NCBI GenBank assembly: GCA_964528155.1
Contig: CAZGRL010000003.1
Location: forward strand, 37,036-101,035
Reading direction: 5' to 3'
From: an uncultured Anaerolineaceae bacterium
GTDB lineage: Bacteria > Chloroflexota > Anaerolineae > Anaerolineales > E44-bin32
Length of the DNA stretch: 64,000 nucleotides
In this document: positions 23,996-48,007 of the stretch, one piece after another
How positions within the stretch are numbered: the stretch's first letter is position 1
How the letters are laid out: every line of letters starts with the position of its first letter
Made by a program: the position numbers and the translations under genes
Notes under the pieces: model-generated
Told to the model about the DNA's origin: nothing
The model's database searches: none
What the model saw: the letters and a program-made list of their open reading frames with translations, nothing else

Positions 23996-24838
23996 GTGAC
24001 ACCCTCACTGATTGCGGTGCTGACCGACTTCGGGACGAAAGATACCTACGTCGGGGTGATGAAAGGTGTCATCGCCTCAATCGCACCTCAAGCCCGTGTC
24101 ATCGATCTAACGCACGAGATCCCTCCGGGTGATGTCCGTCAGGCGGCTTTCAAGCTCTGGCAGGCTGTGCCGTTCTTCCCCGACGGGACGATCTTCGAGG
24201 TCGTCGTGGATCCGGGCGTCGGAACCCGCCGGCGGGCAGTCGCCGTGGCATGGTCGATGCGCCTGTTCGTGTTGCCTGACAATGGGATATTGACGTATCT
24301 CTTGACGAGCGCCCCCGCCAGCAAGGCGGTCGAGTTGGTCACGCCCACCTTCCGACTCAACCCCGTCAGCAGCACGTTCCACGGCCGGGATGTGTTCGCC
24401 CCCGCGAGCGCCCACCTGGCACGGGGAGTTCCTCTGGACGATCTCGGCCCGCCCGCCGGTGATCTTGTGCGCTTCCCTCTCCCGCGATTGTCCATGAAGG
24501 CCGGCCTCAGGCTTGAAGGAGAAATCCTGCATGCCGATCGGTTCGGCAATCTAGTCACAAGCCTGGGAAGGTTCGAACGACGGACCGACTCCTTGGCTTT
24601 CCTCCCATGGCTTCCAGTGGCTCAGGAGGCTGCGCTGCCGCCGGAGAACCTTTGGCTAAACCTTGAGGGCGGGACTCGTCTGGCCGTGAGGAACACGTTC
24701 GGCGATGTACCGGAAGGCGAATTGGTGGCGTACATCGGCAGCGAGGGGCTGATCGAGGTCGCCGTCAACACAGGCAGCGCCTCCGACAGACTCGGGTTGA
24801 AGACCGGGTCACAAGTAGAGCTCACATACGAAGGTTGA
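23996..24838 (+). CDS. SAM hydrolase / SAM hydroxide adenosyltransferase family (DUF62)
   Basis: 280 aa. LTDFGTKDTYVGVMKGVI, PDNGILT and FHGRDVFAP motifs. Confidence 0.85.
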   Translation: MTPSLIAVLTDFGTKDTYVGVMKGVIASIAPQARVIDLTHEIPPGDVRQAAFKLWQAVPFFPDGTIFEVVVDPGVGTRRRAVAVAWSMRLFVLPDNGILTYLLTSAPASKAVELVTPTFRLNPVSSTFHGRDVFAPASAHLARGVPLDDLGPPAGDLVRFPLPRLSMKAGLRLEGEILHADRFGNLVTSLGRFERRTDSLAFLPWLPVAQEAALPPENLWLNLEGGTRLAVRNTFGDVPEGELVAYIGSEGLIEVAVNTGSASDRLGLKTGSQVELTYEG

Positions 24839-26127: not shown

Positions 26128-26331
26128 GGCCAACAAGGAAGCATCAGGCCGTCCGCGCTCGCCTGGCGAGTCGACCCTCCCTTCTCCCCTGGCAGCTTGT
26201 CTCTTGCAGTGTCCGTCCCCCTCGAGCATCGACGACCGGCGGCCATCGAGCCTGCGAGTGAATCATCAGGACGTACGGTTTGCACCTCGAGCCCTGGACA
26301 CGTTGTACCGGGGCAGAGAGATGCCCCCACA

Positions 26332-26438
26332 CTCTCCCACCCCCGTCATCCTGCCTGCCCAGGCCGCAGGCCAGGGAGAGGAGATGGTCCGTATGAAGGA
26401 TGGGGCCGGCTTCGCCGGCCCCATCCTTCATACGGACC
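26332..26438. repeat. Bipartite palindromic element (C-rich hairpin plus 25-bp perfect hairpin)
   Basis: Hairpin 1: CTCTCCC...GGGAGAG (26332-26380). Hairpin 2: GGTCCGTATGAAGGATGGGGCCGGC-TTC-GCCGGCCCCATCCTTCATACGGACC (26386-26438). Lies between convergent murA and the ParA-like gene. Confidence 0.85.
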
Positions 26439-26455
26439 ACGAGGTGCCAGACACC

Positions 26456-27410: not shown

Positions 27411-27562
27411 TCAATTGAGGGTGCATTCGATTTCGGGGGGCGCGTCCTCGTTGTAAAAAGGGAAAATGTGTCTTGGACGGCGGCTGTGCCGCCGTCCAAG
27501 ACACATTTTCCCTTATTCCTCGCGAGGGGCTTGCCCCCCAAGTTGGAATGCACCCTCAATTC
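27411..27562. repeat. Nested palindromic element (outer GAGGGTGCATTC inverted repeat plus inner 24-bp perfect hairpin)
   Basis: Inner: GGGAAAATGTGTCTTGGACGGCGG-CTGTG-CCGCCGTCCAAGACACATTTTCCC (27460-27512). Outer: AATTGAGGGTGCATTC...GGGGGGC versus GCCCCCC...GAATGCACCCTCAATT. Confidence 0.85.
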
Positions 27563-27570
27563 ATTTCACG

Positions 27571-27599
27571 TTGACCGAGGCTAATGCATAAGGTATAAT
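27571..27599 (+). promoter_or_regulatory. Near-consensus sigma-70 promoter for rpmH-rnpA
   Basis: TTGACC (27571-27576), a 17-nt spacer, then TATAAT (27594-27599), about 52 nt before the rpmH ATG. Confidence 0.7.
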
Positions 27600-27651
27600 C
27601 CTCCGGTCTGGTCGATAACAAACGGCCCGAATGGCCGTCGGGGACGAGTGA

Positions 27652-27828
27652 ATGCCGAAAAGAACGTATCAGCCCAAGATCCGTCGCCGCGTGCGTGTGC
27701 ATGGCTTTCGTTCACGCATGGCGACGCGGGCAGGTCGCGCCGTGCTCAAGCGGCGCCGGTCGAAGGGTCGCCACCGTCTTGCGGTTCGTTCGAACGCCCA
27801 TATCAAGAAGGTCAACTGGAAGGCATAA
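27652..27828 (+). CDS. rpmH: 50S ribosomal protein L34, with a short C-terminal extension
   Basis: 58 aa, below the ORF-track cutoff. [58 protein letters not shown]. The track ORF 27648-27839 is in the wrong frame. Confidence 0.9.
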
Positions 27829-27898
27829 AGTGGTCATGACCTCGGAGCGCGTATGCAGACGCGCTCCCAGTCACTCGCCCTCCGAGCCAACCAGGTGA

Positions 27899-28255
27899 AT
27901 GGACCGACGGTACCGGCTTACAGCTTCGGCAGACTTTCAGCGGGTGCGGCGTACGGGAAAGGCCTATGCCCACCCGCTGGTTATTCTGATGACTTGCCCC
28001 AACGGCCTGGATCTGTCACGCTTCGGCGTCACCGCCGGGCGCAGAGTAGGTGGCGCGGTGGTTCGTAATCGCGCCAAGCGACTCTTGAGAGAGGCGGTCC
28101 GTCCGCACGTGGCCCGGACCCGCCCCGGCTGGGACGTCGTTTTGATCGCCCGCCCAGGATTGTTGGCCGCACCCTGGCCTTCCCTGGCGGAGGCCGTCGA
28201 CCATCTGATGCAGCTATCGGGCTGCCTGGTACGTTTGAATGACAACACCCATTGA
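27899..28255 (+). CDS. rnpA: Ribonuclease P protein component
   Basis: 118 aa, basic, with [24 protein letters not shown] (the RNR motif). Sits after rpmH. Confidence 0.85.
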
Positions 28256-37902: not shown

Positions 37903-38008
37903 GCGACCCTCCCCCAGAACACCTGCAGTAGATGCCAGTGACACAGGATGGCTGCTCATCCCCTGATGCGCTTGCACGTGAAGCGACAGCGATCCCCACC
38001 CCCTCTAT

Positions 38009-38117
38009 CCCCTCCCCCGTCGTCCTGACCGGAGCAGTCGAAGGACGGGGGAGGGGAATGAGGAGGCGATTTTTAAGGATGGGACCGGCGCAGCCGGTCC
38101 CATCCTTCAAAATCGCC
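38009..38117. repeat. Bipartite palindromic element, same family as 26332-26438
   Basis: Hairpin 1: CCCCTCCCCCGTC...GACGGGGGAGGGG. Hairpin 2: GGCGATTTTTAAGGATGGGACCGGC-GCA-GCCGGTCCCATCCTTCAAAATCGCC, paired at 24 of 25 positions. Lies between convergent tatC and the methyltransferase. Confidence 0.85.
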
Positions 38118-38144: not shown

Positions 38145-38891
38145 TCAATTGCGTGGCAGCGGCCGCAGGCGGGCGATCTGGACTGACTCGCGCAACAGGA
38201 TCTCTTTGTCTCTCTCGCGAGTGCGGAACAGATCTTCAATCAGGCGCGCAGTCGAATCTTCGATGAACGCATCTTGCCACTCGCTTTCGAGGTGGTGCCT
38301 GAGATCATCAAGCGAGGGCGCGTGGGTTGTGAAACGGAAGCGGGTCTTGCGCTCAAGCTTGAACCACCCTCGCTCGATCACTTGCGCCAGGGCCTGATCC
38401 GCCTGCTCGTACTCGAGGTAGTCGTCCGTCTCGCGCAACCATCCTGCATCATGGACTCTTCCGGCAATCCGAACCTGAATCGAGGGCGGTTCAGGGGATG
38501 GATGGATATCGACCAGCGCACCGTCGGGTTGGAGCAGACCGTGGATTTTCTCCAGGGCATGAACCATGCCCTCGGCTTCGATTCATCAAAGGCTCCAGGA
38601 GAGCAGCACTACGTTGAAGGCGAGAGGCCCCGCCGGAGGCGTATACGCTTCGAGACCGATCGCTCGAAAATCTATTCGGCCACGTAGATCGTTCGGGAGC
38701 CTCATCTTGGCCAGGGCGATGTCGTCCTCATCCGGGTCGATCGCGATGACATGGGCCACTCGATCAGCGTATCGGAAAGTCAACCGCCCATCCCCGGCGC
38801 CGATCTCGAGGACGCGCGGCGGCGTCGGCGCTTGCAGGAATTCGAGCACCGTCCGCAGCTCTTCGCCTTCTGGATCAAGGATGACTGCCAT
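38145..38891 (-). pseudogene. Class I SAM-dependent methyltransferase interrupted by two consecutive in-frame TGA codons
   Basis: ORFs 38586-38891 and 38145-38567 are in the same frame. The joint reading is ...VLEIGAGDGRLT...FNVVLLSWSL-TGA-TGA-IEAEGMVHALEKIHGLLQPDGALV. The stops (38583-38588) sit where this fold usually has two residues before the post-II helix. Confidence 0.7.
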
Positions 38892-38999: not shown

Positions 39000-39605
39000 T
39001 CAAGCCTTGCTTCGCCGCTGCACCTGCCTGCGCATGATCGGTCGCCGAGGAGAGCGCCGGGCGACTTCGCGGAAACCCTCTCGCTCGAACGTCGAGGCCG
39101 AGCCGGGGAAAGCATCGGCGGCGGAGAATTTCGAGCCCGGCGCGCGCTCCACAGGGTAGCCCTCCACCAGTGTCGCTCCTTCAGCCGCGGCGTGGTCGAC
39201 AGCGGCCTTGACGAGCGCCCGGGAGAGCCCCTGCCTGCGGTGCGCCTTGGAGACAAAGAAGCACACGATCGACCATACCGGCCGATCATCCACCCTTTTC
39301 AAGACATGCGACCTCTCCAACGAAGAGAATTCCTCTCGAGGGGCGACCGAAACCCAGCCAACGGGTTCTCCGCCGATGTATGCCAGCAGGCCCGGCACCC
39401 GACCGCTGTCAACGATCCGCTTGAGCGCTTTTCGGTTCCCTTCGTTCGAATTCTCGCTCCATTCCGATCGCTTGATTCGATACCACATGCACCAGCATCC
39501 GCTACACGCCCCACGCGGCCCGAAAAGCCGCTCGAGATCTTCCCACCGTTCGGGCGTCACCGGATGAAACCGAATGTCAGACTTCCTCACCATGACCTTC
39601 TCCAT
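39000..39605 (-). CDS. GNAT-family N-acetyltransferase
   Basis: 201 aa. VCFFVSKAHRRQGLSRALVKAAVDHA matches the acetyl-CoA binding R/Q-x-x-G-x-A/G motif. Confidence 0.8.
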   Translation of the reverse strand: MEKVMVRKSDIRFHPVTPERWEDLERLFGPRGACSGCWCMWYRIKRSEWSENSNEGNRKALKRIVDSGRVPGLLAYIGGEPVGWVSVAPREEFSSLERSHVLKRVDDRPVWSIVCFFVSKAHRRQGLSRALVKAAVDHAAAEGATLVEGYPVERAPGSKFSAADAFPGSASTFEREGFREVARRSPRRPIMRRQVQRRSKA

Positions 39606-39690: not shown

Positions 39691-39846
39691 GAATTGCAGA
39701 GGGTCACCGCTGGGGTGAGTTCCAACCGGATGAGGAATACGGGAAGATGTATGTTGGACGGCGGCAGAGCCGCCGTCCAACATACATCTTCCCTCTAGAA
39801 CGAGGCCGCGACCCTCGATATGGGACGCACCCTCGCCGTTGGCGTA
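39691..39846. repeat. Nested palindromic element, diverged copy of 27411-27562
   Basis: Inner: GGGAAGATGTATGTTGGACGGCGG-CAGAG-CCGCCGTCCAACATACATCTTCCC (39741-39793). The outer arms AATTGCAGAGGGT... and ...GGGACGCACCCTCGCC are degenerate. Confidence 0.8.
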
Positions 39847-39914
39847 TTCTTTCGCGCGATCGCGCCCAGGGGTACAATCATCCTACCCCGCACGTTTCTC
39901 CAAGGAGGCCGAGC

Positions 39915-41279
39915 ATGCGTCCTGTCTTTGCGATATCAGGGGGTGTCTCCAAATTCGCAAAAGCGCGCCCCGATAAGACATTCCAGGCAGTGATCAAGGA
40001 ATCCTACGACTACGCCATCGACGATTTGGGAATCGACTTCCCCACTTTCACTTCTCTGGTCGACGGCTCCGTCGCCGCTTATTTCTCGGATCACTTCGCC
40101 AGACAACTGATGGCCGGAATCATGGCCCAGGACTACCTGGGATTGTGCCCCAAGCCCAGTCATCGTGTCGAAGGAGGCGGCGCCACCGGCGGGCTGTGTT
40201 TCCAGGAAGCCTGGAAATCGATCGCCTCCGGTCACATGGACGTCTGCGTCGCCTACGGCTTTGAGACGATGAGCCACGTCGAGACGTGGAAAGGGAACGA
40301 GTTTATCGCCCTCGCCTCCGACGTCTCGTGGGACTACCCCGTCGGAGGTTTCTATTCCGGCTATTACGCCATGATGGTCACTCGCCACATGAAGGAATTC
40401 GGCACAACGGTCGAGCAGATGGCGGCGGTGTCCGTCAAGAATCACATCAATGCCTATCACAACCCGTACGCGCAGAAACGTCATCGATACACCATCCAGG
40501 ACGTGAGGGAATCCCCGATGGTGGCCTGGCCTCTCACCCGACTCGATATCTGTGTGATGTCGGATGGCGCGGCGTCCGTCATCCTGGCCTCGGAGGACGG
40601 TCTGCGCCGGCTAGAAGCCGCCGGGGCCTCCATCCGGCGTCCGCTGGCACGGATCACGGGGATCGGCCGCGGCACCGACGCCATGCGGATGGCCGACCGA
40701 CCTCATGTGGATTACGACACTTTCATGCGCGACTACGCGACGGAGAAGGAGCGTTCATCCGACGATACACACAAGTACTACAAGAACCTGTGGGATCATG
40801 GCACTAGGTACCCGGGCGTGCATTCGTTCCGCGCTGGCCGGACGGCCGGGAACATGGCCTACAAACACGCCGGCATTCAGGATCCTCTACAACAACTCGA
40901 TTTCATCGAGCTTCATGACGCCTACACCTCGAGTGAGATCCAGACGTACGAGGATATGGGCCTGTGTCGCTACGGTGAGGGAGGGCCCTTCGCCGAATCA
41001 GGCAAGGCCTTCATGCCCGGCGTCGATTACGGGATGAAGTTGCGCGACCAACCCGAGTGTCCCGTGAATCCTTCCGGCGGATTGATCGCCTGCGGACATC
41101 CGGTCGGCGCCACCGGACTCATGCAGGCCGTGTTCGCCATTTGGCAGCTCCAAGGCACGATCGAGAAACACTTCGACGACAAGACGCTGCAGGTCCAAGA
41201 TGCCCGTCGCGGGGCGATCCATTCCCATGCAGGTACAGGAACCTACGTGACCATCAGCGTTCTGGAACGGGAGGAGTAG
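39915..41279 (+). CDS. Thiolase-like protein (SCP-x / archaeal-type acetyl-CoA C-acyltransferase family)
   Basis: ATG at 39915, after AAGGAGG. MRPVFAISGGVSKFAK..., NPSGGLIACGHPVGATG. Confidence 0.85.
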   Translation: MRPVFAISGGVSKFAKARPDKTFQAVIKESYDYAIDDLGIDFPTFTSLVDGSVAAYFSDHFARQLMAGIMAQDYLGLCPKPSHRVEGGGATGGLCFQEAWKSIASGHMDVCVAYGFETMSHVETWKGNEFIALASDVSWDYPVGGFYSGYYAMMVTRHMKEFGTTVEQMAAVSVKNHINAYHNPYAQKRHRYTIQDVRESPMVAWPLTRLDICVMSDGAASVILASEDGLRRLEAAGASIRRPLARITGIGRGTDAMRMADRPHVDYDTFMRDYATEKERSSDDTHKYYKNLWDHGTRYPGVHSFRAGRTAGNMAYKHAGIQDPLQQLDFIELHDAYTSSEIQTYEDMGLCRYGEGGPFAESGKAFMPGVDYGMKLRDQPECPVNPSGGLIACGHPVGATGLMQAVFAIWQLQGTIEKHFDDKTLQVQDARRGAIHSHAGTGTYVTISVLEREE

Positions 41280-47948: not shown

Positions 47949-48007
47949 GATGTTCAAGTGAAGGTGTGGGAGCGGCTTCGCCGCTCCCACACCTTCACTT
48001 GAACATC
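47949..48007. repeat. 28-bp perfect hairpin flanked by C-rich and G-rich tracts
   Basis: GATGTTCAAGTGAAGGTGTGGGAGCGGC-TTC-GCCGCTCCCACACCTTCACTTGAACATC. Upstream tract CCCCCCTGCCCCCTCTCCGCC, downstream tract GGTGGTGGAGGACGAGCGGGAG. Confidence 0.85.

Follow-up and report, generated by a model that had tools for sequence, protein, structure and literature searches.

An ISKra4-type, promoter-targeting MITE of an Anaerolineaceae genome carries a perfect palindrome with mirrored arm changes, probably of DNA-level origin

Two long palindromes in a 64,000-nucleotide stretch of DNA from an uncultured Anaerolineaceae bacterium (the window) are the cores of two copies, A and B, of a small dispersed element that we named F1. 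F1 is a non-autonomous MITE of an IS that probably belongs to the ISKra4 family (Mutator-like DDE). The arms of the two palindromes differ by substitutions that are mirrored on the opposite arm, and our best explanation, which we hold to be probable but well short of certain, is that F1 is an ISKra4-derived, promoter-targeting MITE whose mirrored arm changes stem from templated correction at the level of DNA. An earlier note on this DNA had described a "nested palindrome"; that structure is the MITE, which went unrecognized there, and what the note took for outer arms is the target duplication plus the terminal inverted repeat that F1 shares with the ISKra4-family IS.

The genome (G000) is a fragmented MAG of 4.72 Mb in 285 contigs with a GC content of 61% and a completeness of 93%, in which the window corresponds to C3:37036-101035. 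Genes were called with a home-made codon-usage caller that over-extends starts. The F1 family is small and the MAG fragmented; with 18 hairpins at contig edges, the copy numbers given below are lower bounds. The sample used for covariation consisted of the copies of this genome.

Results

The loci of copies A and B

Copy B (39713..39832, minus strand in consensus orientation) was delimited by family alignment and blast. It is 120 bp long and partly eroded, reads GGGTGAGTTCC... and ...GGGACGCACCC at its ends in the window, and folds as a long foldback. The target-site duplication on its left (39704..39712, TCACCGCTG) shares 7 of 9 bases with that on its right (39833..39841, TCGCCGTTG). The palindrome at the core occupies 39741..39793 and reads GGGAAGATGTATGTTGGACGGCGGC-AGA-GCCGCCGTCCAACATACATCTTCCC, with perfect arms of 25 bp and the loop AGA. 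As claimed earlier, copy B lies in a divergent region, between a GNAT acetyltransferase gene on the minus strand (39000-39605) and a thiolase gene on the plus strand (39915-41279) that is followed by a DUF35/OB-fold gene. A promoter-like site of the thiolase operon (39850..39878, plus strand) has a weak -35 element (TTTCGC/TTCGCG) and a -10 element TACAAT at 39873-39878; it is offset by 18 from the end of the MITE, has 8 of 12 matches, and was not called by a stricter promoter scan at copy B. The sister species G001, which lacks the MITE here, shares the conserved thiolase-side block TTTCTTTCG..GATCGCGCC..GGGGTACAATC.

Copy A (27419..27555, plus strand) is full length at 137 bp, runs from GGGTGCATTCG to GGAATGCACCC, and is 93% identical to the F1 consensus over positions 1-135. 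Its target-site duplications, TCAATTGA on the left (27411..27418) and TCAATTCA on the right (27556..27563), agree at 7 of 8 bases. The palindrome, at 27458..27514, has perfect arms of 27 bp and the loop TGT. The -35 box of a sigma70-type promoter, TTGACC-17-TATAAT (27571..27599, plus strand), begins 15 nt past the end of copy A; this promoter is conserved in G001 and reads towards rnpA (27899-28255, plus strand), the other neighbor being parA on the minus strand. Both copies thus occupy divergent regions, and judged by their flanks they are in opposite orientation. A segmental duplication of the two loci was rejected, as the flanking genes differ.

Between the strong promoter beside copy A and rnpA (27571-27899), about 300 nt are conserved in G001 at approximately 74% identity. 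This interval probably holds rpmH, missed by the gene caller, in an arrangement of parA divergent from rpmH-rnpA that is typical of origin-proximal regions.

F1 and its parent IS

Blast searches and alignment within the genome revealed 10 alignable copies of F1 and 2-3 remnants (C36, C38, C15), located on at least 9 contigs. The element is about 137 bp long, non-coding, and has the shared ends GGGTGCATTCCA/TGGAATGCACCC. In the consensus a left end, GGGTGCATTCCATTTCGGGGGGC, is followed by a spacer of 16 nt, the hairpin, a second spacer and the right end GCCCCCCAAGTTGGAATGCACCC. Target duplications are of 8-9 bp, with 9 of 9 bases identical in C12, 7 of 8 in A, C180 and C15, 7 of 9 in B and 6 of 8 in C53; the duplication was lost in C89.

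The first 23 and the last 24 nt of F1 match the ends of a 1413-bp IS of the same genome at 100%. The sole complete copy of this IS is C69:1-1413, and four fragments at contig edges are also 100% identical; the genome holds at least 3 identical copies. Its transposase matched the ISKra4 model NF033572 in two frames, with 194.9 bits over model residues 96-418 and 54.9 bits over residues 14-102; each piece falls below the 205-bit cut-off of the model, the sum lies above it, and the second-best family was ISLre2. The switch of frame in C69:1-1413 falls near ...CGRGLFP / FFPLDGQ..., and could represent either a programmed frameshift or a homopolymer assembly error. A programmed frameshift was reported in the sister ISMich2 group (PMC3942029).

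These features are those by which MITEs are recognized: dispersed non-coding copies shorter than 300 bp, ends identical to those of an IS, and a target duplication of the length found in the IS family. The core of F1, approximately 90 nt including the hairpin, had no similarity to the interior of the IS. Among 41 relatives searched, full F1 copies were found only in this genome, and matches to the IS ends in three relatives. G001, a genome of the same genus, preserves synteny around both loci of the window but has no MITE there; its spacers are too diverged to rebuild an exact empty site, and it keeps the promoter blocks just past both insertion points. A scan of a public collection with the pattern GGACGGCGGCNNNGCCGCCGTCC, which is too generic and matches GC-rich hairpins in many phyla, returned among the matches listed only one true F1 member, the window's own contig (L162).

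Insertion upstream of promoters

The flanks of every copy were scanned for outward-directed -35/-10 pairs. A pair with at least 9 of 12 matches, starting 14-18 nt from the element end and reading outward, was present at 8 of 13 MITE or IS copies, compared to 0.46% of 20,000 random intergenic points (p ~2e-16). Apart from copy A (11/12), these were C180 (TTGACC-18-TATAAT, 11/12), C89 (TTGAAC-18-TATAAT, 10/12), C12 (TTGACG-17-TAGACT, 9/12) and C7 (TTGACG-17-TAGATT, 9/12), together with the IS ends C25 (TTGACA-17-TACAAT, 11/12), C58 (TTGATG-17-TATAAT, 10/12) and C69 (TTGACC-17-TACCAT, 9/12). Copies B, C15 and C136 have weaker matches (8/12). All three of the IS ends with available flank have the spaced promoter, and the same arrangement was seen at an intact copy (C48, n = 1) of a second MITE family, F2, described below.

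According to Guerillot et al. (2014, PMC3942029), elements of the ISKra4 group insert at a distance of 13-17 bp from sigma-A promoters, as do TnGBS and ISLre2; the group has 8- or 9-bp direct repeats, and its inverted repeats end in C. Copies A and B are thus found in divergent promoter regions because the transposase inserts 14-18 bp upstream of -35 boxes, and the location of both reflects targeting by the transposase, not a regulatory role. An intrinsic terminator was rejected as the identity of F1, whose copies lie upstream of promoters. A terminator scan called none at copy B, and flagged copy A only on the minus strand by way of its TTCCCTTTTT tail.

Mirrored changes in the arms of F1

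Copies A and B differ at three arm positions, 6 (A/G), 11 (G/A) and 13 (C/G), each of which is mirrored on the opposite arm so that both palindromes are perfect, and their loops and outer parts have diverged; in all of this the earlier note was correct. It had described arms of 24 bp with a CAGAG loop, a structure that we recovered with a different count: copy B has arms of 25 bp and a loop of 3 nt, the closing C-G pair having been assigned to the loop. When 2.3 Mb of the genome were shuffled under a first-order Markov model, 0 hairpins scored 16 or above, which excludes chance as the source of the palindromes of A and B. Folding as single-stranded DNA gave z = -9.8 for copy B and -11.3 for copy A.

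In the alignment of 10 copies, 97.6% of stem cells are paired, versus 40-49% with a slid partner. Six of the 25 stem pairs (8 cells) have changed on both sides, a number that 0 of 500 shuffles reached. The mirrored events fall at position 13 in A, 6 in B, 11 in B, C53 and C15, 4 and 17 in C89, and 7 in C12, and comprise 3 transitions and 3 transversions. As the position 11 change is common to B, C53 and C15, it was inherited by B, and the comparison of A with B is therefore one of three events placed on the family tree, not of three events private to the two copies.

Uncompensated mismatches were also present. The earlier note had held that uncompensated mismatches at the rate of neutral decay, in a larger sample, would count against it; they occur in 4 of the 10 copies and total 9 (C53 1, C12 1, C7 2, C15 5), which goes part of the way towards that outcome, yet the six mirrored pairs, which arose independently, greatly exceed the expectation for neutral decay. 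In one remnant the palindrome has collapsed to GGGAAAACGCATTTTCCC. In C15, just one of the arms has the G that copy B carries at position 6, and the copy thus resembles an intermediate halfway through conversion.

When the flanks are aligned in a common orientation, A and C136 have TGT loops, whereas C3_605, C89 and C7 have the exact reverse complement, ACA. The sister copies B and C15 have the loops TCT and GGA, and the reverse complement of GGA, TCC, is one base off TCT. In F1, one or two events in master copies might already suffice to account for such inversion. The arms of F1 have diverged by 0.09-0.10 versus 0.18-0.23 in the adjacent core, a slowness that hints at some constraint and is not predicted by unbiased conversion alone.

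A second MITE family

F2 is an older MITE family with GGGTGTATCCGG ends and at least 11 copies; a search of this genome for a full-length IS of the F2 type found none. Its loops are likewise found in both senses (GGA in three copies versus TCC in three, and GAA versus TTC). The outer arms have diverged by 0.38 versus 0.41-0.55 in the flanks, which is near neutral, and pairing is still kept. Copies of F2 whose terminal repeats have decayed, and which are unable to transpose, still have perfect hairpins, so that selection for transposition cannot be what maintains them. When copies were ascertained by their flanks they fell into two groups, approximately 12 with a near-perfect palindrome and 3-4 from which the palindrome was deleted, with differing junctions. 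The residual mismatches of F1 and F2 together (n = 17) were 6 G:T, 3 A:C and 8 of transversion type; with 6 G:T of 17, wobble is not preferentially tolerated and an RNA tolerant of G:U is not indicated.

Hairpins of the same design across the genome

The genome contains approximately 110 hairpins with stems of at least 20 bp that share one design, a 25-bp stem and a 3-nt loop with a CRGC-NNN-GCYG apex. Of the long hairpins, 141 of 152 are perfectly Watson-Crick paired and 86 of 152 have a loop of 3 nt. Stem lengths peak sharply at 25-26 bp within a limit of 24-27 bp; pairing across the class is ~1.0 up to position 23 and then falls to 0.90, 0.78, 0.51, 0.40 and 0.22. Conservation reaches 85-97% in the apex C[G/A]GC-NNN-GC[C/T]G, both strands show a 5' arm depleted in C, and the stem has a polarity, U-rich on the 5' side and A-rich on the 3' side. 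In 46 of 80 cases the loop is GNA/TNC closed by C-G, which is the d(GCGNAGC) mini-hairpin motif, known for its extraordinary stability in DNA (PMC13037366, PMC3201870).

Hairpins with stems of at least 20 bp lie between tandem genes in 39 cases, convergent genes in 33 and divergent genes in 20, against a baseline of 1393/307/373 gaps. Outside F1 and F2, 31 of the 39 tandem hairpins are nearer the upstream stop codon (p = 3e-4), and the median distance in convergent gaps is 29 nt. A U-tract (at least 5 T in the 8 nt after the stem) follows 5 of 109 hairpins. The hairpins that are not part of MITEs have a purine-rich 5' flank and a pyrimidine-rich 3' flank on both strands. Those near stops may constitute a lineage-specific 3'-end signal. 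Only 6 of 112 hairpins are inside GGGTG...CACCC MITEs, and a strict scan for flanking inverted repeats gave 4 of 97; the reading as a MITE holds for F1 and F2 and, on these counts, finds little support for the rest of the hairpin class.

Covariance-model matches to the class, taken on both strands from 139 candidates scored per genome, numbered 117 in G000, 25 in G001, 57 in G005, 109 in G012 and 13 in G019. With that same number of candidates per genome, the class was patchy, being abundant in 4-5 of 24 family genomes and without matches in most others. For 5 of 6 perfect hairpins of G001 that were examined, the orthologous spacer of G000 also has a hairpin. In the clearest pair of orthologs (G001 C22 versus G000 C54:24334), the arms differ at 7 of 24 positions, each difference having its mirrored counterpart. 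A conventional terminator-like hairpin of 11 bp (G001 C22, L285 ~735-860; G000 C54 ~24035-24150) is also conserved between the two species and has a mirrored change, GAGCTGATCAGCTC versus GAGCCGATCGGCTC.

Eighteen hairpins are at contig edges (for example C12:66844-66898 and C203:1-55), and many contigs end exactly in a long hairpin. Palindromes break assembly, and the true number of hairpins is therefore underestimated.

Further hairpins of this design occur in the window. Two members of the GAAGGATGGGRCCGGC subfamily, at 26385-26439 and 38065-38117, are perfect or near-perfect and lie downstream of stop codons of minus-strand genes, 17 nt from that of parA and 28 nt from that of ORF 38145-38567, respectively; the two differ by a mirrored G/A change. 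Another, with 28-bp arms, is at 47949-48007. A separate repeat that we termed module 1 is found at ~26320-26380 and 38008-38056 of the window, and has about 31 copies genome-wide. It consists of CCCCTC[CT]CCG[GC]C, approximately 30 variable nt and G[GC]CGG[GA]GAGGGG, 54-56 nt in total, and its arm variants co-vary (CCCCCGGC/GCCGGGGG and CTCCGCC/GGCGGAG). About half of the copies are 4-8 nt from a long perfect hairpin, and orthologous spacers of the sister species G001 retain the composite of module 1 and hairpin.

Discussion

A probable templated origin of the mirrored changes

The patterns in this small family indicate that the mirrored arm changes of F1 are most likely of DNA-level origin. 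According to the explanation we prefer, the ISKra4-family transposase would presumably mobilize F1 in trans, inserting it 14-18 bp upstream of a -35 box and producing the 8-9-bp target duplications. A substitution in one arm would subsequently create a mismatch within the intrastrand hairpin, and the mismatch would then be removed or copied to the other arm, either through a template switch within the replicating molecule or through conversion between the arms of the extruded hairpin. The same process would occasionally copy through the loop and leave it inverted. Copies that escape correction would lose the palindrome through deletion or decay.

Of the two options that the earlier note had put forward for A and B, copying from one arm and selection on pairing, the family data favor the former; selection on pairing, in whose favor speak the conserved stem length of 25 bp, the conserved apex and the retention of hairpins of the same design at orthologous sites, is the less favored. 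Templated DNA correction appears to fit better than selection on an RNA, given the mirrored transversions, the loops found in both senses, the absence of any favor towards G:T, and the perfect hairpins of decayed copies. The transversions count against an RNA route because they offer no G:U intermediate. The same direction is indicated by the perfect Watson-Crick pairing of 141 of 152 long hairpins, by outer arms of F2 that stay paired while diverging at a near-neutral rate, by the two-group distribution of flank-ascertained F2 copies and by the DNA-stable GNA/TNC loops.

In their study of template switching, Monttinen and Loytynoja regarded a compensatory change combined with loop inversion as the strongest support for that process (2022, PMC8794818). 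F1 resembles template-switch (quasipalindrome) mutagenesis as described there and in Ripley's model, with multi-base mirrored changes, perfect Watson-Crick stems and loop inversion. The study found loop inversions to be "extremely rare" in RNA genes, whereas here they recur in F1 and F2, both of them small families, probably for lack of constraint on the loops.

Alternative explanations

Selection on a functional RNA or DNA hairpin (a terminator or insulator, an RNA-stabilizing 3' structure or an RNase III site), with mutations in one arm deleterious and second-site changes fixed, would also generate mirrored pairs. The narrow range of stem lengths and the shared apex extend across unrelated families, the design is kept at orthologous spacers of the sister species while at least 7 of 24 arm positions have turned over, the wider class clusters near stop codons, and the arms of F1 evolve more slowly than their flanks, all of which favor this explanation. 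Against it, F1 copies occupy promoter regions instead of gene ends, U-tracts are rare and the stem has its U-rich side at 5' and its A-rich side at 3', the stems are perfectly Watson-Crick paired with no preference for G:U and with half of the mirrored changes transversions, the loops flip to their reverse complement, and the class is patchy among relatives. In addition, Rfam matches were only sub-threshold and to generic miRNA-hairpin models. We consider it unlikely that selection of this kind accounts for the mirrored changes. A simpler explanation is that the mirrored differences are trivial, the copies being young and the variants derived from different master copies. Inheritance of the position 11 change by transposition and the restriction of F1 to this genome among the 41 searched are in keeping with it. 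Each master variant would nonetheless need two complementary substitutions, and six such pairs are beyond chance; moreover the flanks have diverged by 18-37% with the stems still almost fully paired, and the stems of older F2 copies with decayed ends are perfect. This explanation is very improbable.

The fixed geometry might instead be read by a protein, such as a host nuclease, a nucleoid protein or a second mobile-element enzyme (compare REP/RAYT), the MITE having merely captured one of its hairpins. A 25-bp "ruler", an invariant apex, DNA-stable GNA loops and a 5' arm C-depleted on both strands would suit such a reader, as would the recurrence of the design in at least three flank contexts (F1, F2 and beside module 1) and a MITE core that does not derive from the IS. 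A RAYT was not found, however, nor did any candidate protein emerge that co-occurs with the hairpins. For the conserved apex, survivorship would be another explanation, with only those hairpins that still nucleate continuing to be corrected. We regard a hairpin-reading protein as quite improbable. Within the templated-correction explanation that we prefer, the 25-bp limit, the near-invariant apex and the retention at orthologous sites are more easily read as structural constraint or survivorship than as a pure by-product. A bolder proposal is that the ~110 hairpins, the MITE cores included, form one lineage-wide class of DNA element of fixed geometry, actively kept perfect by a dedicated process or protein across speciation while the arms turn over. 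We find this proposal doubtful; if true, the hairpins would be a functional feature of Anaerolineae genomes or a new self-maintaining selfish DNA, beyond decaying MITE cores.

Comparison with known repeats

Several MITEs of other bacteria, including Correia/NEMIS of Neisseria, ERIC/IRU of enterobacteria and RUP of Streptococcus pneumoniae, are non-coding elements of 100-160 bp dispersed between genes, with terminal inverted repeats, and fold over their entire length into a long hairpin. Correia elements duplicate TA and are linked to promoter, terminator and RNase III effects. F1 is similar to these families in size, intergenic location, terminal inverted repeats and long hairpin. Unlike Correia elements, it has a duplication of 8-9 bp and is targeted to promoters, and only its central 25 bp are perfect, the outer foldback being approximately 70% paired.

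The REP/REPIN-RAYT systems of E. coli and Pseudomonas, and SMAG of Stenotrophomonas, comprise abundant intergenic palindromes that co-vary and often follow stops, much like the wider hairpin class. That class differs in having no RAYT, no family sequence or GTAG-type head, and stems that are hypervariable, perfect and 25 bp long, and F1 differs in its IS-type terminal repeats and target duplications. A REP/RAYT system was rejected, there being no RAYT (Y1 HUH transposase) gene flanked by repeats in the 93%-complete genome. The only match to PF01797 above the cut-off is a 515-aa protein (C116:6125-7672) with an N-terminal receiver-like (REC) region and a C-terminal Y1_Tnp domain (42 bits); no hairpins or repeats are nearby, and from its sequence the domain looks like a domesticated transposase domain. 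A known RNA family was likewise rejected, as Rfam 15 gave no gathering-level match in the window; the sub-threshold matches at the hairpins were to models of eukaryotic miRNA precursors.

The parent IS resembles the ISKra4 group (p-MULT 4, Mutator-like DDE), TnGBS and ISLre2 in its 8-9-bp repeats, the terminal C and insertion about 15 bp upstream of -35. The elements described for the ISKra4 group (PMC3942029) are full-length ISs, transposons and ICEs, whereas F1 is a derivative of 137 bp that has no coding sequence and whose hairpin core is foreign. We found no literature on MITEs of the ISKra4 group or on palindromic repeats of Anaerolineae.

Implications

These results provide a concrete parent and a mechanism for one of the families of palindromic repeats that litter Anaerolineae genomes. 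Mirrored substitutions together with loop inversions are decisive according to the template-switch literature, in which they are rarely seen. Perfect hairpins that are unconstrained and present in high copy offer a natural system for measuring the rate at which one arm is copied from the other in replication. They also call for caution with covariation methods such as R-scape, since changes that look compensatory are possible without RNA function. Finally, F1 inherits the promoter targeting of the transposase, and its copies therefore serve as existing markers by which real sigma70-type promoters can be located in an uncultured lineage.
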